Shown: positions 3,739-63,547 of the stretch, in pieces
How positions within the stretch are numbered: position 1 is the stretch's first letter
How the letters are laid out: each line of letters starts with the position of its first letter
Virus record (IMG/VR): IMGVR_UViG_3300021400_001327
Location: 32,001 to 96,000 of that record
Direction: 5' to 3' (one strand)
Length of the DNA: 64,000 bases
Source: a virus
Taxonomy: Duplodnaviria > Caudoviricetes
Program-made: the position numbers and the translations under genes
The notes under the pieces: model-generated
What the model was told of the DNA's origin: nothing
The model's database searches: none
The model's input: the letters and a program-made list of their open reading frames with translations, nothing else

Positions 3739-4120
3739 CTTTTTGTTGTGCCATGCTCGCTACACATGACAGGCTGATTACTCAGCGCCTTGTACTTTCG
3801 CACAAGAACAGACTATATCTTCTCCCGCTTTGGGAGTGCATTACTTCGACCGTCAATCGCTTACGGTCTACTCCATATAGGATAGTCGTTGAACCTTCCT
3901 GTTTCCAGACTCGGCTGCTGATTGTCCATTGTTTGGCGTTTAGGTTTTACCCATGCGTCATACATACACTTTTTTCTGCTTTCGCTCTATTACGTTTGCG
4001 TTTCTCTCTATCGCTCCGTTTTAGCAGTATGTCTTTAGGATGTCCCAGCAATTCTATGCATCAATTATTACGCCGCTTTCGCGACGCCGACGCTCTGTTG
4101 CGCGTTGGGTTACGCTAACC
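3739..4120 (-). ncRNA. Group I intron (382 nt, no ORF) in major tail gene
   Basis: Minus strand has core elements GAATTGCTGGGA, AATCAGCAGCC, GTTCAACGACTA and AAGATATAGTC. Exon ends in U (4121), intron ends in G (3739), and removal restores the frame. Confidence 0.9.
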
Positions 4121-11965: not shown

Positions 11966-13735
11966 TTAATTGACATATACATGGTATTCATACTGACTTG
12001 ATGTAGACAGAAAGTCGTGCTCAAGCAGGGATGCAAAGTAAACGCCATAGCTGACAGACGTGTATCTGTCCTTGGTGTTGTTCCCTTGCTCCGATATCCT
12101 GATGATACCGGTGTCCGGCATTCTGTCATAAGTCAGACTGATCATTTCATTGATAAGGGCTCGCGTCTCGATGAACGGTCCCTCATAGAACATCTGTGTA
12201 TCGAGGTCAATGGCGTCAGCGTATCCCTTGACCTTCGGTAATATATCGTCGACCGCTACGTCGTACTGAGCCAGCAGGTGCATCCTGTGCTCGACGAACT
12301 CACGCCGCGTGACCTGCGCAATCTCACTGTTGATCCTTGATGAGGCGTTGACGGCAAACAACACCTCCATCGCGCCCTCAACGCGGACACGATTGGCTGT
12401 GTTCTCGTCATTCATGCATTTGAAGGCAGGCATCTCGGTCTGTGAGCTCTCATCATAGGTCGGTCTGGCCAGCATGTCGTATACTGCCACGCCGCCGTTC
12501 CGCATATCCAGCACCACATAGTCACAGCCTGTATCAAAGAAGACAGTCTTGATCCTTTTGGCTTGCTCCATCGTGTCGCCGCCATGAATGTGCTCCATAT
12601 AGACGACATGCTTCTGATATGCCATACTCCCGTTCTCGAAGTATTCCGGTAATAGCCTGATAACAGAAAACACAGAGTTGTCGTTGTTCTTCTTGTCGAC
12701 GAACGCCATATCACACGACAGAATCCTGATCTCGCCGTCCTGATGCTTCAGCGTCTCGCCTCTCTTAATCTGGTTGTAGCTGTCCTTGCGCGGGTAGATG
12801 GGCGGCTGCTGTATCGTCTGCGCCGCCGCGAGCATCTCATAGTCGAAGTAGGCGTTCTCGTTCTCGCCGACCATGATATTTTCGCTCTCGATTAACCAGG
12901 TGGTCGGGTCGTCCCTGCGCTTGTCCTTAATCAGCTGATTCCGTGTTTTGATTTTATGGTACAGTGTGATGACGTAATCGAACGCCAGCAACGAGTACCG
13001 CATGTTTCCATGCGCTACCTGCTGGGCGGTATCCCTGATTGTCTTCCACATCCAGTGCGATCTGTACCACGCGGACGATATATAGATGGTCTTGCTCTCT
13101 TCTGGCTCGATGTCCTTATACTCTGGAAGGTCCTTGTACGGCGCGTTGCGCACATGCTGGAATTTACTCAAGACAGAGTCGATGATGAACTTTTTGATCA
13201 TGCGGCACTCTTCCAGTATCAGGATAGTCGAGCGGTAGCCACGGGCGTTATCGTTGCCGACGACGACTACAATAGAGCTCTCGTTTCTGAACAGCACCTC
13301 GATATCGTCGCCCCGCGTCTTGATCGATTTGATTTCAGCGCGGAGGTTAGGCGATACCGGCATAAGCTCCTTCTCTATCTTTTCAGACACGATGAGCTTC
13401 GCCTGCTTCAGCGTGCCAGATGCGATAACGATTTGGCTCTTCGGTCTGAGGATGGCTTCGCAACAGGCGAAGATAGCCAGTACATAAGACTTGGATGTGG
13501 CGCGGGCGGCAATACACATTGACTCGTCCGCGTTGCCGAGCTCGTACAGCATCATCCGCTGGTATGGGTACAGCTTGAGCCCGAGGTAGTGTTCAGCGAA
13601 CCGGTGGATATTATGCCGGTAGAAGTCACACCAATCGATCAGAGCGTTGACGTGCTCCTGATCGCTCAGCCACCCGTCCTCGAAACGCTCAGCCAAAGCC
13701 CTCTGGTTTTTATCGAGCAATCGTTCGTTAGCCAT
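11966..13735 (-). CDS. terL: Terminase large subunit
   Basis: LYPYQ, Walker A-like AARATSKS, ARGYR..ILILEE, nuclease motifs SCDMA and KDRYTS; ATG 13735 after GGAGG. Confidence 0.9.
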   Translation of the reverse strand: MANERLLDKNQRALAERFEDGWLSDQEHVNALIDWCDFYRHNIHRFAEHYLGLKLYPYQRMMLYELGNADESMCIAARATSKSYVLAIFACCEAILRPKSQIVIASGTLKQAKLIVSEKIEKELMPVSPNLRAEIKSIKTRGDDIEVLFRNESSIVVVVGNDNARGYRSTILILEECRMIKKFIIDSVLSKFQHVRNAPYKDLPEYKDIEPEESKTIYISSAWYRSHWMWKTIRDTAQQVAHGNMRYSLLAFDYVITLYHKIKTRNQLIKDKRRDDPTTWLIESENIMVGENENAYFDYEMLAAAQTIQQPPIYPRKDSYNQIKRGETLKHQDGEIRILSCDMAFVDKKNNDNSVFSVIRLLPEYFENGSMAYQKHVVYMEHIHGGDTMEQAKRIKTVFFDTGCDYVVLDMRNGGVAVYDMLARPTYDESSQTEMPAFKCMNDENTANRVRVEGAMEVLFAVNASSRINSEIAQVTRREFVEHRMHLLAQYDVAVDDILPKVKGYADAIDLDTQMFYEGPFIETRALINEMISLTYDRMPDTGIIRISEQGNNTKDRYTSVSYGVYFASLLEHDFLSTSSQYEYHVYVN

Positions 13736-14768
13736 CGTCGTCGCCTCCGATGCTATCGAACGCCGCCGCCTCCTCGTCGGTGATAGAGAGCTCATCGTCC
13801 ACCTTCTGAGACGCCCTATTCAGCAGGTTCATCGTCGGGCGCCGCACGAAGCGGTCATAGTACGTTCCCTGCTTATCGACGTCCTTGTACGGCGTGTTCT
13901 TAACATACTGGGCTGGCGTATATTTCTCGATATATCCCAACAGTACACCGATCGGCGGGACGTCGTTGTCGTCCTTGGGGTTAACGACAGAGTCGAAGCC
14001 GCTCTCGGCGATAGACTTTCGCAGGGCGGAAGACAGCGCCGAAGCATTGGGCTTGTCATTCTTGATAGCCTCCATGCATCGGTATTCAAGTGCGGCCAGA
14101 AAGCGGGCGCTCTTCAACTGACCAGCGGTGGCCGTATCACCCAATGGGTCGATATAGCCACGGTAGATTCTGTACATATAGCCGTACGCCTTTTCCTCAA
14201 AGCCCTCGCCAAAAATATTGACAGCCCTGCTGAGGTCGTCCGTCGATAAACCGGCGTCGGCCAAAGTGACGACATTTCCGCCCCCAGAATACACACGGTC
14301 GCCCTCATCCTGAAGTGTGTCGTCAAAAGATTTATTGATAGAGGATACACTCATCCGAATACGGTGAAGGTATTCCTCCATCCCTTGTTTTTCCGGCAAT
14401 ATGCGGTCCATGATTTTCGGATCATAATACGCGTCGATCCACTCACAGGTTCGACGAACAGCCTTCTGCATATCACCAGAATACATCTCCATGTGGTCGT
14501 TGAAGAATTTTTCGATGCAGTCCATACACACGGCTGTGTAACTGTAATTGCCCGCGTATGTGCTCGATCCAACCTGCGGGAAATATGTCCTCTGCATGGG
14601 ATATGTTTTCCCGCACATCGGACATTTGGTCGGCACATCAGGGACTTTAGGTTTCTCTCGTGGCGGCGGAGACTTGTCTTTGTTCGCCGCCGCGCCTTGT
14701 CCCTTGTTGCGCGTCCTTTTCTCCTTCACGATCACCTGTTCTTTGATTACAACTGGTATCGCTGGCAT
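13728..14768 (-). CDS. Putative terminase small subunit (Zn-finger N-terminus)
   Basis: Overlaps the terL start; CPMC..CMDC. Confidence 0.5.
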   Translation of the reverse strand: MPAIPVVIKEQVIVKEKRTRNKGQGAAANKDKSPPPREKPKVPDVPTKCPMCGKTYPMQRTYFPQVGSSTYAGNYSYTAVCMDCIEKFFNDHMEMYSGDMQKAVRRTCEWIDAYYDPKIMDRILPEKQGMEEYLHRIRMSVSSINKSFDDTLQDEGDRVYSGGGNVVTLADAGLSTDDLSRAVNIFGEGFEEKAYGYMYRIYRGYIDPLGDTATAGQLKSARFLAALEYRCMEAIKNDKPNASALSSALRKSIAESGFDSVVNPKDDNDVPPIGVLLGYIEKYTPAQYVKNTPYKDVDKQGTYYDRFVRRPTMNLLNRASQKVDDELSITDEEAAAFDSIGGDDDG

Positions 14769-17882: not shown

Positions 17883-18512
17883 TCAGCGAGAACCAAGACG
17901 CAGAGCCGCATACAGCGCCTCGATGTCGTTGTCGATAAGTTCGTGCTCTCCTGTATTTTTATATGGCACAAGCAGTTTGAAGCATGACACAGAGCGGCGA
18001 TATTTTGAGAAACGACCAGCGGCCTTGCCTTTGTCTGTATCTACCTTTGCGATGTATTGCCACTCGCACAGGCGGCGGATATTGCGCCCGCGAACGTTGG
18101 CGCCTTTCATATCCAGCCAATTAGCCAGTTGCTCGGTTGACGCCTGAAACACCCCACGCCTGTCAGCGAACGCCTTTGCATTGCACAACAGGGCAAGCGC
18201 CACCTTCCTGTCTGTCTCTGTCGGCGCATGGTCCACGATATTCTGGGCGTCTGTCTCTGATACGAACACACGACAGCCACTGTGAAGCTCGGCTTCATTG
18301 ATGTACGCAGCGTTGACGCACTGAAGGAGATTCAGCCCGTTCGTCTTGTGGCCATTCAGCCAATCACGAATAAAGGAGACGGCGTCCACTGGGGACTCGC
18401 CGTCTGCCTTCATCAGCTTGGATATCATATAACATGCCCGATACAGCCGACTCTGCTCCTCTGGCGGCTGTCCAGACATATACTTCTTAACTTCCGCGAC
18501 CTCGTCAATCAT
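17883..18512 (-). CDS. Hypothetical protein, possible winged-helix C-terminus
   Basis: Coupled to the RNAP stop; STEQLANWL..NV..RNIRRL pattern. Confidence 0.6.
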   Translation of the reverse strand: MIDEVAEVKKYMSGQPPEEQSRLYRACYMISKLMKADGESPVDAVSFIRDWLNGHKTNGLNLLQCVNAAYINEAELHSGCRVFVSETDAQNIVDHAPTETDRKVALALLCNAKAFADRRGVFQASTEQLANWLDMKGANVRGRNIRRLCEWQYIAKVDTDKGKAAGRFSKYRRSVSCFKLLVPYKNTGEHELIDNDIEALYAALRLGSR

Positions 18513-19494
18513 CGTCATCCTCCAGAAAATCAAAGATGCCCGGTTCAAGCGAGATGTCCATCTCGTCACTGTTCATCGGGACCATCGTGTAGTGACGCCC
18601 AAGATAGCTGAGCTCGCCATCATCATCGCGCTTTGGCACCATGATGCCAGCCTGCGGCTTCACGTTCGCCACGACACCGTCCGGCGCCACGACCCAAGGG
18701 AACTTCCTTCCGCGCCCTTTGTACACCTCATGCACGAGCTTTGTAGCAATATTGGCCAGCACCCGCTGGTCATCACAAACCTCAGCGCACAGCTTCCTAT
18801 ACTTCTGATACAGCGCGTCCCAGTCGGCGATGAAGGTAGTCGCCTCGTACTTCGTAAACTGCTGTCTGATCTCACGGTCAGAGTACCGCCTGACTTTCGT
18901 CTGGTATTTCTGGAGCTCGTTCGTCTCCTTGCAGAAGTCTTTGAATATCTTGGCCACCGCGTCGAACTGCTCTTGTGTGTAGGCAATGCTCTCGTCGCAC
19001 ATCACACTGTAGTCGAATCGCTCCTTCCGCCGCCACTTAAGCTCACGTTCCCATTTCTCGAGCTCACGGCAGAGGCGGTTCATATTGCTCGGCGCTTTTG
19101 AAAGTTCCATCCTTGCGTAGTACGGCGACCGATACCGCATAAAATACGGGAGGGGTCTGCCCCACTTACTGATTACGCGGGGCATTGAATAAAGGACGCC
19201 GGTTTTTGCGTAATCGATGCTCTTCCCGACGATGGTACTGATAATGTCCTCATACTTCTCGTACCGCTCCTTCTGCTCATCTGTCTTCGGGCAGCGGTTC
19301 AGATATACACTCGCGTAGTTGCTGTACTCGCCAATCATATTCTTTGTTGTTCTGGTCAACAGCAGGACGCGACCGGCGGCGTCGTTGTTTTCCTTCAGGG
19401 CTGTGACCTTGTCTTCCATGTCGATAACGATAGTGGCGTTTTTGTCCGACCCGTCCAGGAAGAGCGGGTTGTCATTGACCAGTACGATATCACC
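18505..19494 (-). CDS. YonO-like single-subunit RNA polymerase, exon 2
   Basis: Begins GD (second half of DFDGD); IDYAKTG motif of the QDE-1/YonO family. Confidence 0.85.
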   Translation of the reverse strand, partial: GDIVLVNDNPLFLDGSDKNATIVIDMEDKVTALKENNDAAGRVLLLTRTTKNMIGEYSNYASVYLNRCPKTDEQKERYEKYEDIISTIVGKSIDYAKTGVLYSMPRVISKWGRPLPYFMRYRSPYYARMELSKAPSNMNRLCRELEKWERELKWRRKERFDYSVMCDESIAYTQEQFDAVAKIFKDFCKETNELQKYQTKVRRYSDREIRQQFTKYEATTFIADWDALYQKYRKLCAEVCDDQRVLANIATKLVHEVYKGRGRKFPWVVAPDGVVANVKPQAGIMVPKRDDDGELSYLGRHYTMVPMNSDEMDISLEPGIFDFLEDDDD

Positions 19495-19788
19495 CATAAC
19501 CCACCGGCTTTCGCCGATGGCCGGACTATTTCTTTACCCATTGCTGGGCAGCTGGCACTTCGCCGACTGGAGTTTCACCAGCCAGCTACTCCTTACGGAT
19601 AGTCTCTACACCTTCCTCTCACGAGGCTTGGCACGGCATTGTCCTGCGCTCATGCGTTTAGAGTTTTGCCGTTAGCCGACCCAAAAGTCCATATATTATT
19701 GATAGTGGTCATTTGGTCCGACACCCCAGTTGTCTGGGTTCACCAGCTTTTCATCATCACGTTACCGTGATGCGCGACAGTGTTACTT
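19495..19788 (-). ncRNA. Group I intron (294 nt, no ORF) in RNAP catalytic motif
   Basis: P1 exon CGAU pairs with GUCG (U.G at the splice site); core elements GTAGAGACTA and AAGAAATAGTC; terminal G at 19495; splicing gives NGADFD-GD. Confidence 0.92.
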
Positions 19789-21354
19789 ATCGAAATCCGC
19801 ACCGTTCAATCTCTGCGCCACTAAGCTCTTTATGTTCAGCATAGCCACATTTGTCAGGTGGCCGCACCATTTCCAAATCTCGTCCGCGTTATTCACTCGG
19901 AGCACTACGTTCTCGCTCCGGCAGATGTGCGGGTTTCTTGTCACGACGTATTCCCCGTCGTACGTGATGCCCTTGCCTTTCGTCCAGAACTCATCGGCGC
20001 CGAGACAGCCGACAACCGGAAGTCCGCCAATGTGTTCCGCAAACGCGATCAGGTCTGGGGCGATAAACTTGAAGCATGACTTAATGTACAGCTTACCGCA
20101 CTTCATATCGTTGATAAACTTGTCCAGCAGGGACATGATGTATTTGTTCACTGTTGGCTCTTTCATCATGGCGTCGTTCTTAGCAATCGCCGCCACGTAC
20201 GCGTTCAGCGCGTTGCACTTCCCGTCTACGATACCAAGGAAGCATTTGGTAAAAAGCTCGTCTCCGCTAACGATGCGCTCAATCCACCTCGCAGACTGGT
20301 GGGCCAAGGTCTTGAAGTCCTCATAGGGCAGGTCCAGCGTCTGCAAGACCTGATAATTGCTCCGTGTGTACACCGGCTCTTCCTCTTCGGTGAAGTTGGC
20401 GCGGGCAATAGAAATACAGTGTTCGTATTTATAGAACGCATCCCAGTACCGTTGCCAGTCCCTTGCGTCGCCGTACTGCTTGAAGTAGCCGAGCCCCTTG
20501 TACATGCTCTCGCTCAGGATGATCATCTCTTCGTGGATGCTGTGCTTCTGCCCCCACAGGTCCTCAATATACTCGACGCCGCGCTCCTCGTAGAAGCCCT
20601 CGTAGTCGAAGACGTGAAGACACCCTTTAATGAACGGCTGCCTGTAGATGACGGTGGTGATGGGCGTTGTGCTGTTGGTCAGCGTCTCCATCCAGTGAGC
20701 CACGTTCTTATGCATGATGCCAACACCATCGAACGCGTTGATCTCGTAGTCGAACACGCCCTCGGCGATGTCCTTCTGCGTAAAGTTGAACTCTTTGCCT
20801 TCAGAGTTCGTGTACGTGGTCACCTTATCAACAAGGTGTTTGATGCGCTGGTTCTTGATGGTCGTCATCATGTCCGGCACAACGATCATCTTCGGCACAT
20901 AGTTCTCGATGCAGTGTGCTGATGAAAGCGCGAGCCCGCGATAGGCGTACCACTTGCTCAGTACCGTCTTGTCGATTTTCAGCCCCATCGTCACGCGCTC
21001 TGTGAGCTCGTCCGCTATCGAGGCATCGACCATCGACAGTACGCCCTGGCGCACCATAGACGCGCTGCGCTCGCCGAGCACGAACGGTCGCCCGCGTATC
21101 TTGATACCCTCCAGCGCAAGCCGCGACAGTGTAACAGCGATATCCTTGTGGTAGTTAATGTCCACGAAGATGATATACGGGTTGTACTTCGACGTCACGC
21201 CGGTGATGCGCCTGATCTGTCTCAGGTACTGGCTGTCGGCCTGCTTGATGAAATACTTCTTCTCTTCCTCTGGCGAGATATCCAGACTGAAATCTGCCTT
21301 TACGATCGTACGCAGATCAATCGAGCGCACGATATACTGCTTAGGCGCCTGTAT
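19789..21354 (-). CDS. YonO-like single-subunit RNA polymerase, exon 1
   Basis: SAS..RQG, FDGVG, R.PFIKG, RNPH, RLNGADFD. Start is either GTG 21330 or ATA 21354. Spliced product ~843-851 aa. Confidence 0.85.
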
Positions 21355-23211: not shown

Positions 23212-25615
23212 TACGCATCCCGTTCCTTCCGGTACCAGTCATTGAATATCTCACAGGCGAGCCACAACTGATGCCATATCTGGCCAATATCGATCTCCGC
23301 GATCTCGGTGAACGGTCTGTCGCCCACGAAGTGAAGCTCTGGCGGTTCCTTGCCGGAGAAGTACCAGTAGGCCAGCGTGAAGCAGTAAGCTCTGCCGGAG
23401 CTCTCCCTGGTCCATTTGACGAGCTCTACGTAAGGCTGGCCGTCGCCGAGACTCTTTGTTGTTCGTATTTCAAACTCACCGTATTTCCAATTGAAGTCGA
23501 ATTGATTGGTCTCCATGCATACTCTCCTTTGATGCCATCCATCCTCGCTCCGCACTCGGGGCAGAAGTTGGTCATTGCAAAATCTCCAGCCTTGTCCTCT
23601 ATCGCGAAGGTCAAACAGTTTGAGCAGAACGGCTCGACGCCGTGTTCGTTCGCCACCCATTCCGCATGAGGCTGGGATGGACACTTCCCGCACTGGTCTG
23701 TGGCATAAGTCCACGTCATTTCTTTCCGGCCTCCTCGGCTGCGGTCGCCGCGATGAAGCGGTCCCTGAACTCGATCGCCGCACGGCTCATGTAGGCAGCG
23801 CCGTCGGTGGCCTCGTCCAAAGTATCGGGCAGGCGTCCGGCCAGAAACTCACCGAATAGCAGGTGAACGCCGAGCGTGATCATGTCCCGCTTATGCCGGT
23901 TGCGGCCAGCGCCCTTGATGGCGACAGCGCAGACCTCTGCCAGGTACTGGTCCCAATGTTTATAGAAGCCGGTCTCAGGCGCGATCTTGAACCCGCAGAC
24001 TTCCATCATTTTCTTCAACACATCATCCATGCTTGATGGCCTCCTCAAATTCATCCAATAGCTTAGCCGCCCTCAACATCAGTGCGCCGGTGCAATCACC
24101 GAGGGACTTTCCGTGGTCGGTTCCCGTTACGCAGTCACTGCACGTCTCATCGTTATACGGCAGGCTGCACCGCTTGAGAGACATCGACGTCTGTTGTACC
24201 TCGCCGAGAAGGACGGCGTTCTGGATAACCTTCATCTCCTCGATCTCGTGACGATCGCGCTCAAGGGACAAGTCCTTCCTCAGCTGGCTGATCTCGTTCT
24301 CCGCGTCACGCATCCTGTGCGCGTCCGTGATGTGCATAATGACGAGCAGAAGGCATAGCGCCGTAAATAAAAAATAAATGACCCGAAGGTCAGTCTCAAT
24401 GTTCATGGGGCACCTCCAATACTTCTGCCGGTACGCTCCAGCACTCCCATGTGACCCCGTACTCATTCAATGGCAACATGTACCTGTGCTTCGCGCTCTC
24501 GAACAGGTAAACACCGCTATCCTGCATAAGGAAGAACGTTGGCTCCTGGCACCACACTTCGTCTGGGTCACAGCAGGTGATAACGACGAGCTCGTTCTCC
24601 TCCAGACATTTAACGTCGAGGAGAGTCATCTTAGTTATCTTGCTCATCGAACTCATTCCTTCCTCCTGCGCTCACCAGCGCCATACAAAAAATGCCAACC
24701 ATCGCTGACAGGGGAACGATCCAGAACAGATGCCATATACTAATCATTGCTCCACCTTTCTGATCACGTACCGGTGATCCCTGAACTCAGATTCCTTATC
24801 CATCTTCTCAACGCTGCGCACAATAATGTTGCAGTCGCCCTTAGCTGTATTTACGAGCGCGATATCCCCAGGCTTCAGTTTCTCCGCCAGCGCCTTGTCC
24901 GCGTACCACTGGAAGTCCACTGTGTCGGTCGCGTGATGGACGCCGTGCACCACGTACAGATCCCTCTCATCGTCGTGCAAAGCATCGATATGGCAGAGCA
25001 CGTTCCACAGGCTTTGCTGTACCTGCTTCGCCTCAGCGCCGATACGCTCGATTTCGTCCTTGTACCGTTTCATGGTTTCGCCCAAGCCCTCAGCCTTTCG
25101 CTGAAGCTCTAGCTTTCGCGCCATGAGTGCGCTGTACTGGTGCTCCCTCTTCACATGCTCGACAGGCGGAGGCGTGAACTTGATTGAGGCCAGCATCTCC
25201 TCCGGCGTGAGCTCATGCTCGAGCACCCACTGCTTCTTCTTCACGTCCTTGCCGTTGTCTGTTACGACAGCAACATCATACATTTGCCAGGAGTCATCGG
25301 CCATGTCATAATAACCAACGGTCGAATACGGGTCCTTCCTTAACTTCCAGAGCCATTTGCCCTCGCCCGTGTCCTGATTGATAAAATATCCAATGCTTCC
25401 CTGATACATCAAAACCTCCCGTTATCGTACCAGTCAGATAGTACAGCCATGATTAACACGATACAGAATAAACCGAGAATGATCGTCATGTCCGCTAAGT
25501 CCCCCACAATGAAGGTCACCTCCTTTGCGTAAATAAAAAACGGCGAGCCTTCGCGCCCGCTCAGAGATATGTAAAAGGCAGACACCTGGTCTGCCCTGTA
25601 AGAATAATATAACAC
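23211..25615 (-). other. Cluster of ~8 small coupled hypothetical genes (incl. 23426-23719, 23716-24030, 24023-24406, 24396-24656, 24744-25412)
   Basis: Overlapping start/stop codons with RBSs; no recognisable families. Confidence 0.6.
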
Positions 25616-25634
25616 ATCGTGGCCGCTGCGTCAA
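25606..25634 (-). promoter_or_regulatory. SigmaA-type promoter, leftward
   Basis: TTGACG-17 bp-TATATT with extended TG. Confidence 0.7.
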
Positions 25635-25679
25635 ATTAGGTTGGCGGCTCCGTTCTATCCATTGGATAAACTCTGGATG

Positions 25680-26450
25680 TATATTTTAAAATCGACGAAT
25701 CTTTTGTAATATCAGATTAATTAAATTATTTTTAATCTGTTTTTTGAAAAATTCTCTATCATTAGTATAGTATATATAATAAGACTAATAATCAGATTAG
25801 TACTCAGTTAGATGAGAACTACTGTACAGTAGAACTCAATCAGTTGAGAACTCCTGTAGATGAGTCCTAATTTTTTAAAAACTAATAAGACCGGTCTTAA
25901 TAGCTTATACTCTCTATGGACATAATGGTATACCATTCTCTCTATGAGGTACATGTAGAATAAGCTATTCTGTAACGATATAATATTATAAGCTTAGATG
26001 CAATATAATATAAACTATTACACTCAATAAACTTAGATGCAATATATAAGCTATTAAGCTCAAGTAACTTAGATACGTCTACTATGATACATAATAATAT
26101 AATCTATGACTTAACGGCTTATATAAGCTATTACCTAACGGCTTATACCAGATGTCACTTAATAGCTTATACTCTCCAGTCTTAAGGGCTTATATCTCAT
26201 AGAGTCCTTGATTCTAACTGCTGATATATTCATTTATAGCCATGAAGCAAATAAATGAATATATCAGCAGAGAGTAATAGAAGAATATAGAGAAGACTGT
26301 CCATAGAGTACATGTAGAGCGTAATAGCTTAGTAACGTATCAAGGACTCGTTACAGAATAGCTTATACCTCTCGGTGCTTATATGCTTACCATTATGTTC
26401 TAATCTCTTAATAGCTTTTAAGATAATGGGTCTCGGCAAAAAATTTTCTT
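25680..26450. repeat. AT-rich repeat mosaic, candidate replication origin
   Basis: ORF-free; multiple AATAGCTTA copies in both orientations; 19-bp direct repeat; 20-bp-stem hairpin. Confidence 0.6.
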
Positions 26451-26540
26451 GGGTCGGATGGCTTCGGGGCGCCGGTGACTGACGGCTGATGACGCAGCGG
26501 CTGGCGATTTATCGCCAGGAAGTTTTGCGGCGGGCGCGTA

Positions 26541-28171: not shown

Positions 28172-29008
28172 TTAGTCGGTCACGAGTTCCAGCTTTCCGG
28201 CACTGGTTACTTTCAGCAGCCCAGCCTTTACAAGGACTTTTACAAGGTAGGGCTTGACGGATGAGGGATTTTTCACTTTTTCCCCGTGTCCCTCCACCAT
28301 CCTTTTCATATCCTGCGCCTGCTTCGCTGTGCACTTCCCCATTCGTTCCCGCTCTGCGATGGCTTCCAGCGCTCTCTCGGTCCAGTCCATGACGGCGCTT
28401 GTCTCGGCAAGGCGGCGTTCTGCGGCACTGGTGGCGCTTCGCTCGTGTACGTGCTCGACAGGCGTTCCCTCTTTCGCGCTTCTTGTGACAATCCGCTTCT
28501 CAAGCCTGCCGCAAGCCCTACACGCTTCGATGAATGCACTGTGATGGTCGGCGTAATAATCACCCTCAAGCTCGGCAGGTATCATGACGGTGTACTGTGC
28601 CGCCTCCGCTTCTGCTTCACTGATAGCGAGAGCGGCGGTCTGTATCATGTCGGCATAATGACGAATGTAGACGTTCTTGTCTGCGGTCGCGCCGCGCCTG
28701 ATAGCACCCTTGATTTTCGCGGCTACCACACGCCGCGCAAGGTCATATACAGGGCCTGAAAAAACGGCGCGTCCTGCGGCGGCTTCCTCTGCTCGGTGAT
28801 TGATGGGGGCTGTGGTGGTGGCCTTCCTATTAGTGGCGGCGGCGGTGGTGGTCGTGACGGCGGCGGCGGTGGGGATGGTGTAGGCGTTCATGCGCTCTAA
28901 CACCCTGATGATACGAGCGGTGAAGCTATGCGGTGTGCGGGGGTCTCTGATAGCCTTAACGGCGGCGGCGATACGGGCGGCGGCGGTGGTGGTGTTGGTG
29001 GTTTTCAT
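28172..29008 (-). CDS. Hypothetical protein with Thr/Ala-rich N-terminus
   Basis: ATG 29008 after AAGGA; first gene of the left arm. Confidence 0.6.
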   Translation of the reverse strand: MKTTNTTTAAARIAAAVKAIRDPRTPHSFTARIIRVLERMNAYTIPTAAAVTTTTAAATNRKATTTAPINHRAEEAAAGRAVFSGPVYDLARRVVAAKIKGAIRRGATADKNVYIRHYADMIQTAALAISEAEAEAAQYTVMIPAELEGDYYADHHSAFIEACRACGRLEKRIVTRSAKEGTPVEHVHERSATSAAERRLAETSAVMDWTERALEAIAERERMGKCTAKQAQDMKRMVEGHGEKVKNPSSVKPYLVKVLVKAGLLKVTSAGKLELVTD

Positions 29009-29249
29009 AGTGGTGTTCCTTTCTGCCCTGTGGGCTGTCGGTGTAGTGTGTGTCTTACTGAATGACACTAAAGTAAGAATTCGACAAAAATTTCTGAATT
29101 CCTGCAAAAAATCTCGATTGCCATAATTTTGACATATTTCCTGGGCGCTCTCGGGTGCATGGTGGGTGTAATCGTTCATCGATGATGAATCGATGATGAT
29201 TCATCAATCAGTGTTTAATAATGATTGATGGTATCCAAACAAGTTGTAT

Positions 29250-29695
29250 CTGTTCCATGCCAACCGTTGGATTCATCGGGCGCGAAAGTGCCCGAGATGG
29301 TACGAGCGGCGGACCTGGACGGGCGCTTGCCCGCTGGATAGCTGGAAGTCCAGACGTTGAGTCCCAGCGCAAAAGCTCGATTTGCAGGATGAAGAGCAAA
29401 CACAGAAACGACGCTGCTTAGCAGAAAGCGCGACGTGCGAAAGCACAGCGGCTTGCCTGATAGCCTTCGGCGATTCAGGATTTCCGGCAAAGCCTTCGGC
29501 GATGTCGGCTTGCTTAGTGCTGGGCTCACCCACCGCATTTGCATCTCTGAGCGCATGGTGCCGAGACTGTGACTGACAAAGCAATCAACAGCCGCAAGGC
29601 TGATTTTGCCCACGGTGCAAGCCCGTGGGCCTTATGCCAGCGCTGGCCGCATGAAGCTGGCGCGGTAATAAAATCGCTGGTTAAACCAGCAGAAA
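29250..29695 (+). ncRNA. Unclassified large structured RNA / leader
   Basis: GNRA-capped hairpins and nested long-range helices (see findings). Confidence 0.6.
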
Positions 29696-29704
29696 GAGGT
29701 ACCT

Positions 29705-30631
29705 ATGTATAAGCAGAATGATTACACCGAGAAGAAGTCCGCTGCTCAGGCCAAGCTCGACGCCTACATCGAGAAGGTCAACGCTGACAAGCCGCAGGCC
29801 AACGAAATCACCGGCGCGAAGGAAGCGCTCGACAAGGCCGTCGCCGATTACAACACGCTCGTCGTGTCCGACGCCTACGAGCGCCTGTTCCTGCTGACCG
29901 CCGACGACGCTGAGGTCGGCTCCCTGCCTGATCCAGCCGCACACCTGAAGGCCACTGACCCGCTGGGGCGTGCCTTCCGTGGCTATCGCTTCTCCGGCCT
30001 GATGAAGGCCAGCATAAAGCGCGACAAGCAGACCGACCGTGTAGACACAGGCAAGACGTCGCTGGTCTGTGTCGCCGACGATGACGCCGACGAGAAAAAG
30101 CAGGTCTACCACCTGCGCGACATCGCCGCGAAGTGGGACGAGCTCCAGACTGCCGCAGGCGTGACCCAGAAGGCCGAGCTCATGGCTTCGCCAATGTGGG
30201 GCTCGCTGGTCCAGAAGGTCCGGCGGCTGTTCATCGCTCGCTCGCTGTCGCTGGGCGGCTACGCCATCCCTTCCGGCGTGACCAATGACTATATCGTCTA
30301 CACCGCTGACGGGCAGGCCGTGGCTGTCGCTGACCTGACCGCTGAGCAAAAGAAGGCGCTCGACGACAAGGTCACCGTCAAGGCGCTCAAGGCCGAGCTT
30401 CAGGCGCTCGTTGACGCTGTCTACTTCGACGCGACTGGCCGCAAGAACGGCTCCAACAAGTACCGTGTCAACGAGAAGGACGTGCACTGGCTCGTGGACA
30501 ACGCTCATCGGTTTGATGAGCGCTCCCACAAGACCGTCCTGATGAGTGACGCGAAGGCGTACGAGTTGGCCTTCTGCATGGTCGCCCACATCGTGACCGG
30601 CGAGTCCTACAGCGCTCTTCTGGGGGAGTAA
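29705..30631 (+). CDS. Hypothetical protein, probably highly expressed
   Basis: GAGG RBS; very biased codon usage. Confidence 0.8.
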   Translation: MYKQNDYTEKKSAAQAKLDAYIEKVNADKPQANEITGAKEALDKAVADYNTLVVSDAYERLFLLTADDAEVGSLPDPAAHLKATDPLGRAFRGYRFSGLMKASIKRDKQTDRVDTGKTSLVCVADDDADEKKQVYHLRDIAAKWDELQTAAGVTQKAELMASPMWGSLVQKVRRLFIARSLSLGGYAIPSGVTNDYIVYTADGQAVAVADLTAEQKKALDDKVTVKALKAELQALVDAVYFDATGRKNGSNKYRVNEKDVHWLVDNAHRFDERSHKTVLMSDAKAYELAFCMVAHIVTGESYSALLGE

Positions 30632-30702
30632 TTCCCCCCTTTGCCCCGCATGGCTCAAGCCTCCACGCGGCGCGGGGTGGGTAACGCCGATTGAGTCAGA
30701 CC

Positions 30703-30731
30703 TTGTCAACTGAGCGAGAACGTGATATATT
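30703..30731 (+). promoter_or_regulatory. SigmaA-type promoter
   Basis: TTGTCA-17-TATATT with extended TG. Confidence 0.6.
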
Positions 30732-31730: not shown

Positions 31731-31753
31731 AACCGCCTACGGGCGGTTTTTTT
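31731..31753 (+). terminator. Intrinsic terminator
   Basis: AACCGCC-TACG-GGCGGTT followed by a T-run. Confidence 0.8.
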
Positions 31754-59533: not shown

Positions 59534-60706
59534 ATGCCAAACTATGTGATGTACCACTGTCATAGCGATTACAGCCTGCTCGACAGTTGTACAAAGTTCA
59601 GTGATTACATCGAACTGGCGAAACGCGATGGCATGACGGCGATTGGGTCCAGCGAACACGGACTTCCGAGAGGCAACATCAGCAAGATGATCGCCTGCCA
59701 GGAAGCTGGGCTGAAATTCCTCTATGGTGTTGAGGTGTATCTGACCAGGACGTTGAGTGGTGAAAAGGTCAGAGACAATTACCACACCGTGCTGATTGCC
59801 AAGAACCACGAGGGCATGAAGGAAATCAACCTCGCGGTCAAGCTGGCCTCGCGTGACGACCACTTCTACTACCAGCCGAGGATGACATTTGATGAACTGA
59901 TTCGGCTTTCAAAAAACGTGATTGTTATATCAGCCTGTGTCGCTTCGCCGCTAAGCAAGCTGCATGTCAGTGATGCGGACTACCAAAGACTGCTGAACCG
60001 CTACGATTATCTGGAGATACAGCACCATGACCACCCAATGCAGATAGCGTACAACCAACATCTGTACCAACTGTCGCTGGAGACAGGCAAGCCGCTCATC
60101 GCCGGGACGGACACACACTCCTCTACACCGTATAAGGCCGAGTGCCGCGACCTGCTGATGCTGGCCAAGGGCAAGTCGTTTCCCGATGAGGAGACCTTCG
60201 ACCTGACCTATAAGACCTATGATGAATTAGTGGCCGCATATGAGAAACAGGGCGCCCTCCCCCGTGACGTGTATCTTCAGGCGATTGAGAACACGAACGT
60301 GATGGCGGCGAGCGTGGAAGAGTTTACCATCGACCGCAGTAACAAGTATCCGATATCGTATGGCTCTGCCGAAGAGGACGCAAGGCGGTACAAAGAACTG
60401 ACATGGCAGATGTTCGAGGACAAGCTGAAGAAAGGTGTAATACCGAGGAGCCAGGAAGATGCGTTCAGGAAGGCGATAGAAGAGGAGCTCGCCACATTTG
60501 AAAAGCTGGGCATGTGCGGCTTTATGCTGTCTGAAAGCGAGCTCATTCAGTGGTGCCATGCTAACGGCATTCCAACCGGCCCAGCTCGTGGTTCTGTCGG
60601 CGGTTCGCGTGTGGCGTATGTTACGGATATCATCGACATGAACCCTGAGGACTATGGCACGATATTCAGCAGGTTTTGTAACGAAAATCGTATAGAAATT
60701 GGCGAT
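59534..60706 (+). CDS. dnaE: DNA polymerase III alpha subunit, exon 1
   Basis: PHP motif HCHSDYSLLD, GPARGS..GS; ends ..RIEIGD. Confidence 0.92.
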
Positions 60707-61549
60707 CAACCATACGGTCGCCCTTTGCAGTAATGCATCGAAAACAAGCTGGTGAACCAACATACGTTGGGTGTGCGGCGTTTGCCGTGCTAACGGTGAA
60801 AGCTAAACCGCAAGGCATGCTAATACCGTGGTAAGCCTTTAGGAAAGGAGGTAACCATATGATTGACTATAGTTTGCTGTATAGCGGAGAGGAATTGAAA
60901 GAAATCAATGGGTTTGAACATTACTATGTTTCAAATTATGGCCGTGTGTTTTCTGACGGAGAATACAGAAAGAGTGGCCGTCGTGACTTTCATGAGCTGA
61001 AGGGCAAGTACGGGAAGAATCCAGCGAAGTACGGTAATGTCATGCTCTCGAAGGATGGAAAGTATTACACGTTTATGATTCACCGACTTGTAGCTCTACA
61101 CTTTGTGCCCGGATATTTCGATGGCGCTGTCACCAATCATATCGACGGCAACAACAGAAACAATCGAGCCGATAATCTTGAATGGATAACTCAAAAAGAA
61201 AATATCCACAAGTCCTATGTCACATCAGGAGTCAATCAGCTTCGTCATTATGATGAGTGGGCTTTGTTTGACCCTGAGGGCAACGAACTCGGAGTATTCA
61301 AAGGTATGACGGCCATACACAGATTTATCGAGAAGAATCATCTTCCGACGTATGGATCTTCGTTAGAAAAGTATAAGGTCAGTCGTGGTTACCGTGTTGA
61401 AAAAGTTCCTAAGGAAACTGTAACGACTATCCAAATCGGAGTAGCGTGACGGTGAAATTCCGTCGTGCGAAGTGCCAGCCTCCGCAATAATGCGGATGAA
61501 GATATAGTCTACTCCCCTAATAAATATCGGGAAACCGAGGGTATAAAGG
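60707..61549 (+). mobile_element. Group I intron (843 nt) with homing endonuclease
   Basis: P1 GGCGAU/GUCGCC; GTAACGACTA; AAGATATAGTC; terminal G at 61549; splicing gives GD-IDTD in frame. Confidence 0.92.
60859..61449 (+). CDS. Intron-encoded NUMOD4/HNH homing endonuclease
   Basis: Y.VSN.GRV, HRLVA..F, NHIDGN..NN...NLEW.T..EN..H. Confidence 0.9.
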   Translation: MIDYSLLYSGEELKEINGFEHYYVSNYGRVFSDGEYRKSGRRDFHELKGKYGKNPAKYGNVMLSKDGKYYTFMIHRLVALHFVPGYFDGAVTNHIDGNNRNNRADNLEWITQKENIHKSYVTSGVNQLRHYDEWALFDPEGNELGVFKGMTAIHRFIEKNHLPTYGSSLEKYKVSRGYRVEKVPKETVTTIQIGVA

Positions 61550-63547
61550 ATAGATACTGATCTTATTGACACCGATAGGCCAAGAGTGTTCCAACATATC
61601 ATCCAGAAGTTCGGCGAACGCAAGACCGCCCGTGTTTCGGCTTATGGCACGGTCGCCGATAAAGGCGCGATTGACGATATCTGCCGTGGCCTGAAGACGC
61701 GCTGGGTGACAGATAACAGAAAAGACCTAAACCCCAAGACATTCAAAGATGAGATGATTCCAGAGTGCCCGTTCACACTAAAAGCGGCGGACAAAATCAA
61801 GGACGAGTATATGAGCAATCCGACAGCCGCCAGACAGAAATATCCCGATGTCTTCTACTACTTCGATGGCACAGTCAACACCATCGTCAGCCAGTCCATT
61901 CACGCAGCAGGCATCGTTATTTCTCCAGTAACATTGGACGATAACTACGGCACGTTCTACAACTCTGGTGAGCACTGCCTCCTGCTCGATATGGAAGAGG
62001 CTCACGACGTAGGTATGTGCAAGTACGACATGCTGATTCTAACAAACGTTAAAATCATTGCGGACACATATAAGGCGCTGGGCAAACCGTTCCCCAAAAC
62101 GCACGAAATTGACTTCAATGATCAGGCTGTATGGAAAGATATGAGGCGAAGCCCCTACGGCATCTTTCAAATGGAGAGCTCGCTGGGATACAACTCCCTG
62201 CGCAAGATGAAACCGACCAGCGTCAAAGAGATGGCGTTGTTGACTGCATCAATTCGTCCGTCCGGCGCGTCGTACAGGGATGACGTATTCGCCCGTAAGG
62301 TACACGCCAACCCCACCAAGGAGATGGACGAACTCTTCAAAGACAACTTTGGCTTCTGCGTCTATCAGGAAGACATCCTGCGTGCTCTGATCGAGCTTTG
62401 CGGCTTCAGCGGCAGTCAAGCAGACACAGTGCGGCGGGATATCGCAAAGAAGAATCCAGAGAAGGTCGCCAAGGATATTGTGCTGATCAAGCAGGGGTAT
62501 ATCGAACGCTCCAATAAACCAAGGGAAGAGGCTGAACGCGATGTGGCAGACCTGCTTCAGGTCATTCAGGACGCCAGTGGATACTCTTTTAATAGCTCGC
62601 ATGCAGTCGCATATTCCATTGTGGGCTTCATGTGCGCCTATTGCCGCCACTACCACCCGCTTGAGTTCTGCACGGCCTACCTCAACGGCGCCAAGTCGCA
62701 GGAAGACATCTACCACGGAACCGTCCTCGCCCAGCTTTACGGCATCAACATCCAGCCGCCGACCTTCGGCCACTCCGGCGACGAGTACACATTCGACAGA
62801 GCGACCAACACCATTTATCAGGGGCTCGACTCGGTCAAAGATATGGAGTCTGGCGTTGGCCAACGCATGGCCGAGCTTGAGAAGACCGCGCCAACAGACT
62901 CTGCGGTCGACCTGTTCCGTTATCTCAAGAGTAACGGTATCGGCAACAAACAGCTTGAGATACTCATAGACATCGGGTTTTTTGCCAATTTCGGCAATGT
63001 CAGGAAGTTGCAGAAAATCCTTGAAAACGCTATCGCTCTCAAGTGGGGAGATATGACATGGCTCGCGCACGAAAAACTCCCGAGGTTTAGCTTTGAAGCC
63101 GGTGCGCTCTCCGCCTATGCAGAGCGCAGGACAGAGAAGAACTGGAAGGTCAAAGACGGCGCTGGCCTGTTACGGTATATGGGGCGCATCGTCGACGATC
63201 AGAACGTACAGGACGAACCGTTGTCCGAGAAGTTTAGCAAGTGGATGAACTACCTTGGTTATATCCCGGCGATGGGCGCGGACTTCAGGGCAAAGATGTA
63301 TGTCTCAACCGACCCGAGAGAACTCAGGTCCAAGAAGACGGGTAAGGTATGGGCGCACTGCATATCGGCAATTTCGCTGAGAACTGCCGAAATGCATGAA
63401 TGGCTGATACCGAGCGGCTTCTACATCAACAAGCTTAAGAAGGGAGACGTGATCCAGGTCGTCGGCGGGCGCGAAGGATTCAGCGTTGGTGATTATAACG
63501 GTATGCCGACATATCGCCTGTATAACTACAAGGTAACCAATGTTTAA
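61550..63547 (+). CDS. dnaE: DNA polymerase III alpha subunit, exon 2
   Basis: IDTD, HAAG, KYD.L, GIFQ.ES, YQE, YSFN.SHA.AYS; spliced product 1056 aa. Confidence 0.92.
   Translation: MDTDLIDTDRPRVFQHIIQKFGERKTARVSAYGTVADKGAIDDICRGLKTRWVTDNRKDLNPKTFKDEMIPECPFTLKAADKIKDEYMSNPTAARQKYPDVFYYFDGTVNTIVSQSIHAAGIVISPVTLDDNYGTFYNSGEHCLLLDMEEAHDVGMCKYDMLILTNVKIIADTYKALGKPFPKTHEIDFNDQAVWKDMRRSPYGIFQMESSLGYNSLRKMKPTSVKEMALLTASIRPSGASYRDDVFARKVHANPTKEMDELFKDNFGFCVYQEDILRALIELCGFSGSQADTVRRDIAKKNPEKVAKDIVLIKQGYIERSNKPREEAERDVADLLQVIQDASGYSFNSSHAVAYSIVGFMCAYCRHYHPLEFCTAYLNGAKSQEDIYHGTVLAQLYGINIQPPTFGHSGDEYTFDRATNTIYQGLDSVKDMESGVGQRMAELEKTAPTDSAVDLFRYLKSNGIGNKQLEILIDIGFFANFGNVRKLQKILENAIALKWGDMTWLAHEKLPRFSFEAGALSAYAERRTEKNWKVKDGAGLLRYMGRIVDDQNVQDEPLSEKFSKWMNYLGYIPAMGADFRAKMYVSTDPRELRSKKTGKVWAHCISAISLRTAEMHEWLIPSGFYINKLKKGDVIQVVGGREGFSVGDYNGMPTYRLYNYKVTNV

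Follow-up and report, generated by a model that had tools for sequence, protein, structure and literature searches.

What lies in the gap from which the two arms of a phage genome are transcribed apart, and what does it do there? The DNA analysed here (the window) is a 64,000-nt stretch, bases 32001-96000 of the 107,314-bp IMG/VR record IMGVR_UViG_3300021400_001327 (Duplodnaviria; Caudoviricetes), which has direct terminal repeats. Its left arm, on the minus strand, carries structural genes, including that of the terminase large subunit (11966-13795), and its right arm, on the plus strand, encodes a C5 methylase, a ParB-like protein, an ERF recombinase, a PD-(D/E)XK nuclease, a primase-helicase and a split DNA polymerase III alpha subunit. 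The gap spans ~700 bp between a leftward gene for a protein of 279 amino acids (aa), starting near 29011, and a rightward orphan gene for a 308-aa protein. Within it, window positions 29253-29690 of the plus strand, roughly 440 bases, encode a new family of large structured non-coding RNA. The original prediction, made from the sequence alone, had spoken of an unclassified large structured RNA at this place, and the description holds: the element is conserved, covarying, non-coding, read from the plus strand, and matched by no Rfam family at threshold. Moreover, all of the sequence motifs that the prediction had listed are present where it put them, among them three GNRA hairpins, a long stem and a duplicated hairpin cap (included in Table 1).

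The 308-aa protein has 15 homologues in metagenome assemblies (41-74% identity; more with a profile), and the DNA around 11 of these 15 was taken for comparison of the gap. A gap of ~700 bp precedes the homologous gene at each locus with enough flanking DNA (13 distinct sequences), and the RNA structure is kept across phages whose adjoining protein has diverged to 41% identity. In the MAFFT alignment, whose 15 sequences represent 13 distinct full or partial members, near-invariant blocks alternate with stems whose two sides co-vary. A profile of the gap recovered just the loci of the 308-aa homologues and two further metagenome contigs. A 22-nt pattern, scanned against contigs from metagenomes and genomes, matched 39 loci, only three of which were accepted by nhmmer (L112, L117 and L126); since L117 duplicates a known sequence, this added two new members. 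Matches to the same pattern in Pseudomonas and other genomes, not accepted by nhmmer, were set aside as chance, and a match to a second pattern (L104) was rejected as a member, sharing only 25 nt that lie inside a coding region. BLAST of the RNA region against phage and plasmid records gave no match. All members of the family are syntenic relatives within a narrow phage group, presumably mostly from rumen metagenomes, as their sample names suggest.

Conserved non-coding stretches are many in phage genomes, and few show covariation enough to argue for RNA structure; this one does. The covariation test was applied to eight reliably aligned helix elements (11 runs), namely hairpin Pd, the two pseudoknot stems, Ph, Pi, and hairpins A, B and C. 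Across the 15 sequences the 51 tested pairs are 94% paired, and compensatory changes occur in 25 of the 51. None of 500 shuffles matched the observed percentage paired, the number of compensatory pairs or cells, or the covariation score, and one in 500 equalled the count of further pair types. As a control, sliding the 3' partners by 1-3 columns lowered pairing to 28-44%. G-U pairs are frequent in the tested helices, so the RNA is read from the plus strand. The fold of the window's own copy, compared with shuffles, gives z = -2.63 on the plus strand and -1.73 on the minus strand, a modest difference that would be weak if it stood alone. The original prediction had named a lack of covariation among the outcomes that would refute it, and covariation is there: the conserved fold comprises 11 or more helices, a pseudoknot among them.

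The region likewise bears out the statement that it holds no convincing open reading frame (ORF). Variability by phase of three is nearly flat in the RNA region (0.137, 0.140, 0.157) and is 0.15, 0.16 and 0.27 in the adjacent ORF. The indels of the RNA region measure 1, 1, 2, 7, 11 and 22 nt, and similarities between its translations turn up in all six reading frames. With no periodicity, indels that are not of triplet type and similarities independent of frame, a protein-coding reading was dropped. A 5-codon upstream ORF in the loop of hairpin C (AUG...UAA) was likewise rejected, the AUG being ACG in several relatives.

Beyond the tested helices, other parts of the fold can be placed with differing firmness. 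The 5' domain architecture, followed by Pc and Pd, emerges from independent folding of 11 divergent sequences and is clear in eight, with stem sequences that differ; for the other three (L101, L100 and L112) other outer folds of this domain are predicted. Three nested long-range pairings had been proposed, and they fared unequally. The window can form those at 29255/29553 and 29294/29542, but the 3' arm of each falls inside a 22-nt insertion (29541-62) that most relatives do not have, and they are therefore not features of the family. The third, 29359/29517, has a core that recurs in relatives. This helix X, with CCCAG/CUGGG in nearly all members, becomes UGGCAG/CUUGCCA in the most distant one (L095) and CAGCAG/CUGCUG in another; it probably closes the central domain, to which the H-type pseudoknot and the two CCUUCGG hairpins belong. 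Because its duplex energy is just 1-1.5 standard deviations better than that of shuffles, and because MAFFT misaligns it between two clades, we rate it as a plausible conserved pairing. Helix X, the GCGCGAC region and the linker are the less firmly placed parts of the fold. An alifold helix, AAGC/GCUU (29426/29508), was dropped, since MAFFT misaligns its 3' strand between the two clades. Several kissing or long-range pairings were also discarded, as they do not hold across relatives: those between the loop of hairpin B and GCUUGC, between the loop of hairpin C and the CCUUCGG caps, between AUGGUAC and the start-codon GGUACC, and between CCACCG and the 5' domain. The 3' domain consists of three highly conserved hairpins, A, B and C, and the CCGCAYGA segment of hairpin C is invariant even in the most distant member. 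Hairpin A has the loop GCAA, which is GAAA in two relatives. After hairpin C, all 13 of the 13 sequences have an A/U-only linker of 8-10 nt and then hairpin D, which occurs in three unrelated sequence versions and stands 1-3 nt before a purine-rich Shine-Dalgarno tract.

Table 1. Coordinates, in the window, of the structured RNA and of the control DNA, gene and 3'-end elements beside it
Feature	Position	Strand	Details
Upstream control DNA	29129..29230		TTGACA box 29129-34; conserved block ~29146-74; tandem ATCGATGATGA x2 29178-99; inverted repeat 29202-30
5' domain	29254..29319	+	Long outer stem around a variable hairpin (in the window UCGGGCGC-GAAA-GUGCCCGA, 29276-95) and conserved AUGGUACG (29297-304)
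Hairpin Pc	29320..29333	+	CGGGC-GCUU-GCCCG; in relatives GACCG-GCAA-CGGUC and UGGCA-UCU-GCCA; not column-aligned by MAFFT
Hairpin Pd	29334..29353	+	CUGGA/UCCAG, conserved loop UAGCUGGA; 97% paired, 5/5 pairs compensatory
Helix X, 5' strand	29359..29370	+	Core CCCAGC; partner 29517-27; moderate support
H-type pseudoknot	29369..29397	+	S1 GCAAA/UUUGC (29369-73/29381-85), 87% paired, 2 compensatory pairs; S2 GCUC/GAGC (29375-78/29394-97), 90% paired, 3 compensatory pairs; conserved loop AGrrUGAA
Window-specific insertion	29400..29425	+	Small hairpin CUGC-UUA-GCAG; absent or shorter in relatives
GCGCGAC and hairpin GUGC-GAAA-GCAC	29428..29447	+	Motif nearly invariant; hairpin (29436-47) kept only in the window's own clade
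Hairpin Ph	29456..29479	+	Cap AUAGCCUUCGGCGAU; first copy of duplicated AGCCTTCGGCGAT at 29462; 100% paired; G-C to G-U and one compensatory change
Hairpin Pi	29485..29507	+	Cap is the second CCUUCGG; second copy of AGCCTTCGGCGAT at 29491; outer stem 81% paired, compensatory in 4/5 pairs
Helix X, 3' strand	29517..29527	+	GUGCUGGGCUC
Variable linker	29528..29588	+	Conserved CCACCG (29531-36); window-specific 22-nt insertion (29541-62)
Hairpin A	29589..29602	+	CAGyC-GNRA-GrCUG (in the window CAGCC-GCAA-GGCUG); 96% paired; C-G to U-A in 7 sequences
Hairpin B	29608..29630	+	8-bp stem GCCCACGG/CCGUGGGC, 7-nt loop UGCAAGC; 98% paired, 4 compensatory pairs
Hairpin C	29637..29665	+	Long imperfect stem, loop GCAYGA; 94% paired, 3 compensatory pairs
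A/U-only linker	29666..29675	+	
Hairpin D	29676..29690	+	
Shine-Dalgarno	29692..29699	+	GAAAGAGG
308-aa orphan gene	29705..30631	+	First gene of the early/replication arm
Unit 3' end	30622..30697	+	Stop-codon-spanning hairpin 30622-39, then minimal (P4-less) HDV-like ribozyme candidate
HDV-like candidate, P1	30643-49/30672-78	+	7 bp, G-U at base
HDV-like candidate, P2	30652-58/30691-97	+	7 bp
HDV-like candidate, P3	30659-61/30669-71	+	3 bp, HDV-like L3
HDV-like candidate, P1.1	30663-64/30679-80	+	
Next unit's promoter	30703..30731	+	TTGTCA, 17 nt, TG-n-TATATT; near-consensus, conserved in relatives

The surroundings of the RNA bear on its function. Upstream, the DNA at 29178-29230 is operator-like, the tandem repeat being followed by a 14-nt inverted repeat, CATCAATCAGTGTT/AATAATGATTGATG; relatives have different palindromes in this place. 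No boxA-like signal is conserved, and neither a boxA array nor tandem consensus promoters were seen. Downstream, the RNA and the ORF have no canonical terminator between them, and the same phages carry canonical U-tailed terminators elsewhere. The 308-aa protein itself matches nothing in Pfam, PHROG or PDB. Its AlphaFold2 (AF2) model (pLDDT 86.5) returned only helical-hairpin noise in fold searches of PDB (Foldseek, VIA-align), no usable match in the protein atlas, and in BFVD two uncharacterised phage proteins and no others. A search for related loci with the single protein found none, and one with its profile found just one viral contig, already among the set. At L145:1-153, we observed a homologue of the orphan with ~30% identity whose leader has no sequence similarity to the RNA family and is equally rich in hairpins; this leader ends in the same arrangement of A/U linker, hairpin and Shine-Dalgarno (AGAAAGG).

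Immediately after the gene comes what appears to be a device for ending the transcript. A covarying hairpin spans the stop codon, and behind it lies a candidate ribozyme of the hepatitis delta virus (HDV)-like type. The RF00094 match at 30641-30700 scores 37.4 bits (E 0.001), below the cut-off of 50, because the 28-nt P4 of the model is absent; minimal HDV-like ribozymes without P4 are known in gut phages (PMC10879173). All features of the nested double pseudoknot are present in the sequence (P1, P2, P3, P1.1 and a C in J4/2). Cleavage is predicted between 30642 and 30643, and the invariant C of J4/2, the candidate catalytic residue, is put at 30687, with 30687 versus 30688 uncertain (30688 is U in most relatives). 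The element occurs in eight loci at the equivalent position (the window, L084, L094, L099, L100, L101, L102 and L126), almost invariant; where a single base has changed, the result is a U-G or G-U pair. Three other relatives (L090, L096 and L097) have a canonical U-tailed intrinsic terminator instead, and on this comparison of sequences the putative ribozyme and the terminator look interchangeable as formers of the 3' end. In each case a near-consensus promoter for the next gene follows. The right arm as a whole is a series of promoter/terminator units, with plus-strand terminators at 31731, 37712, 43723 and 44672. The ribozyme candidate or terminator after the stop codon, together with the new promoter, makes the RNA and the ORF a closed unit, which is probably monocistronic.

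Does the RNA belong to a known family? No family reached its gathering score anywhere in the 64-kb window when the Rfam comparison proposed in the original prediction was made, and neither ROOL nor GOLLD, which it had named, appeared at E<=10 on 28900-29900. No tRNA or tmRNA was found. Permissive Rfam scans of the RNA region returned only matches to twister-sister, a very weak one to the S15 leader (16 bits), and small nucleolar and micro-RNA (snoRNA/miRNA) noise. The absence of a group I or group II signature is confirmed as well, no intron covariance model matching within 29250-29695; group I-like matches lie elsewhere in the window.

The twister-sister match deserves closer inspection, as it would make the 3' domain (29587-29653) a self-cleaving ribozyme. 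RF02681 scores 28.5 bits there, with E 7e-4 for a 1-kb search and 0.046 for the whole window; both GCAAG and the SL4 loop GUGCAAGCC match exactly, and another ribozyme candidate lies 1 kb downstream. The P4/SL4 feature is present in hairpin B, whose loop reads (U/C)GCAAGC and is closed by G-C. Twister-sister is cleaved at C62-A63, a step within GCUCAU, the 3' strand of loop L1, which faces GCAAG; the SL4 loop docks onto L1, sandwiching an adenine from L1 (PMC5660989). Here, however, only the GCU of GCUCAU is present, the CAU being deleted in the alignment, so that the C-A cleavage step is missing. The score falls below the gathering cut-off of 34, whereas genuine phage twister-sisters reach 79-92 bits with the same model, and eight relatives give no twister-sister match at E<=1. 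The P1 helix is 62% paired, with a single compensatory cell, and P2 is 71% paired, with none; in contrast, the competing hairpins A and C, built from the same letters, are 94-96% paired with covariation. Moreover, the GCAA is the GNRA loop of the covarying hairpin A, and reads GAAA or UAAG in three relatives. Feature by feature, therefore, the 3' domain is not a twister-sister ribozyme, and we regard self-cleavage of this type as most improbable. The UGCAAGC loop common to both RNAs may be a shared tertiary docking module. Genuine twister-sister ribozymes (79-92 bits) were seen on five other IMG/VR phage contigs (L005, L007, L064, L070 and L078), where 2-3 copies stand in tandem at spacings of a few hundred bases, and on a further contig (L012) a RAGATH-5 RNA lies near twister-sister ribozymes.

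What, then, is the RNA for? Its place at the head of the early region makes it probably one of the earliest products after infection. Since no terminator separates it from the ribosome-binding site, the simplest reading, which the original prediction had not listed, is that it is a cis-acting leader. We tentatively favour this: the RNA would be the 5' leader of a self-contained, monocistronic early mRNA, running from leader to 308-aa ORF, 3' hairpin, and HDV-like ribozyme or terminator. Such a leader might shield the 5' end of the mRNA, make it more stable, and set the translation of an abundant first early protein at a high, controlled level. Tertiary contacts, or a protein that may be the 308-aa product itself under autogenous control, would dock onto the invariant loops (UGCAAGC, GCAYGA and both CCUUCGG caps), and the A/U linker could also be a processing site. 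The RNA runs directly into the A/U linker, hairpin D and an exposed Shine-Dalgarno sequence, and the dissimilar leader at L145 shares this ending; both are consistent with a leader. Three points weigh on the other side. A 440-nt ornate fold with invariant loops far exceeds known mRNA stabilisers and translational operators. The co-occurrence of RNA and ORF is not independent evidence of coupling, because all loci are syntenic. Finally, neither visual inspection nor a promoter scan of 29011-29250 turned up a convincing sigma-70 site.

Its excess size and ornateness, together with an A/U linker between stable hairpins, keep a trans-acting RNA or a ribonucleoprotein (RNP) plausible. As a stable trans-acting RNA, it would be cut from the early transcript at the A/U linker (29666-75), so that it would end in hairpin C and the mRNA would begin, protected, with hairpin D; the released RNA would act early on a host or phage target. 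The ornate fold with its invariant loops and linkers would suit such a role, as would the A/U-only single-stranded linker between two stable hairpins in all members; the unit's 3' end already uses predicted RNA self-cleavage, and the large phage RNAs ROOL and GOLLD set a precedent (PMC12286853). Yet the junction of RNA and ORF showed neither a terminator nor a ribozyme nor any recognisable processing signal, and the strict position by the ribosome-binding site suits a leader equally well; we consider release in trans possible and rather unlikely. An RNP, in which the RNA is a subunit or specific operator of a complex with the 308-aa orphan from a co-expressed cassette, would account for the constant adjacency of RNA and ORF, insulated by their own control region and 3'-end element, and for the two identical hairpin caps, AGCCUUCGGCGAU, beside a protein of no known fold or family. 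That co-occurrence, however, is explained by synteny alone, and no RNA-binding fold or motif is recognised in the 308-aa model, which leaves the RNP an unlikely choice. Least in keeping with the unit is the put-like or EAR-like processive antiterminator of the original prediction, which would carry polymerase past the terminators along the 34-kb arm. The RNA does come straight after the divergent control region, and the arm that it opens holds the four plus-strand terminators given above. But the first ORF is followed at once by a U-tailed terminator (three relatives) or the HDV-like ribozyme candidate (eight loci), and the next gene and later blocks have near-consensus promoters of their own; a unit closed right after the stop codon, with a fresh promoter behind it, argues against put-like antitermination. 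The RNA matches no Rfam family and is ~six times larger than put. This function is thus very unlikely. More broadly, the RNA might found a new class of large phage RNA with a function of its own: released from the transcript, or joined with the orphan protein in an RNP, it would target the host during the first minutes after infection, using the UGCAAGC docking module shared with twister-sister; we hold this doubtful, and the cis-acting leader remains the reading we prefer.

The original prediction had also set the RNA at the point where the arms diverge. This is correct for the direction of transcription, the AT skew flipping at ~29-30 kb, and not for the GC skew, whose minimum lies ~3 kb to the left. 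A reading of the element as an origin or primer RNA was rejected on this distance. The cumulative GC-skew minimum falls at ~24000-26500 (near 26 kb), with G+C lowered to 0.48 in 24001-26000, and this region is a likelier replication origin than the divergence point. Elsewhere in the window, two sub-threshold group I intron matches occur on the minus strand: 19502-19798 (33.7 bits, E 7.5e-5) and 3789-4035 (25 bits). The former falls exactly between same-strand ORFs at 18505-19497 and 19783-21330, which suggests an intron-split late gene. The DNA polymerase III alpha subunit is split into 59534-60733 and 61586-63547, with a 196-aa ORF (60859-61449) between; the split (59534-63547) could be an intron, an intein or a homing-endonuclease insertion.

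The unit packages an RNA with an orphan protein and has its 3' end formed by a candidate ribozyme in some phages and a terminator in others. It is thus a compact system for asking what large structured phage leaders do, and it bears on whether small ribozymes serve as interchangeable 3'-end-forming elements. Should the RNA turn out to be no more than the leader of an mRNA, it would enlarge the catalogue of RNA families modestly.

Comparison with known systems places the RNA among, and apart from, several of them. Large phage-borne RNAs with no known role as mRNA exist, and ROOL and GOLLD resemble this one in their several hundred nucleotides, many helices, phage carriage and lack of an assigned function (PMC12286853). 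ROOL was first found in rumen metagenomes, and the names of several samples with the present family also look rumen-like. However, the ROOL and GOLLD covariance models give no match at E<=10 on 28900-29900, and those RNAs stand alone, whereas the 440-nt RNA is fixed directly before a ribosome-binding site. Twister-sister (RF02681) shares with the 3' domain GCAAG and the loop G-UGCAAGC-C, equivalent to SL4, and both occur in phages; the match here is sub-threshold, without the cleavage dinucleotide or covariation support for P1 and P2, and embedded in a much larger RNA. The put RNA of phage HK022 and EAR have a similar location, close behind an early promoter region where a long operon begins. 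The present RNA is much larger, and a terminator or ribozyme with a fresh promoter after the unit would make a terminator-resistant polymerase pointless. The leaders of T4 gene 32 and ribosomal protein S15 are autogenous operators of tens of nucleotides, whereas the leader here has 440 nt and its protein binding is putative. What it has in common with them is a pseudoknot-bearing leader on what would be the stable mRNA of an abundant early protein.
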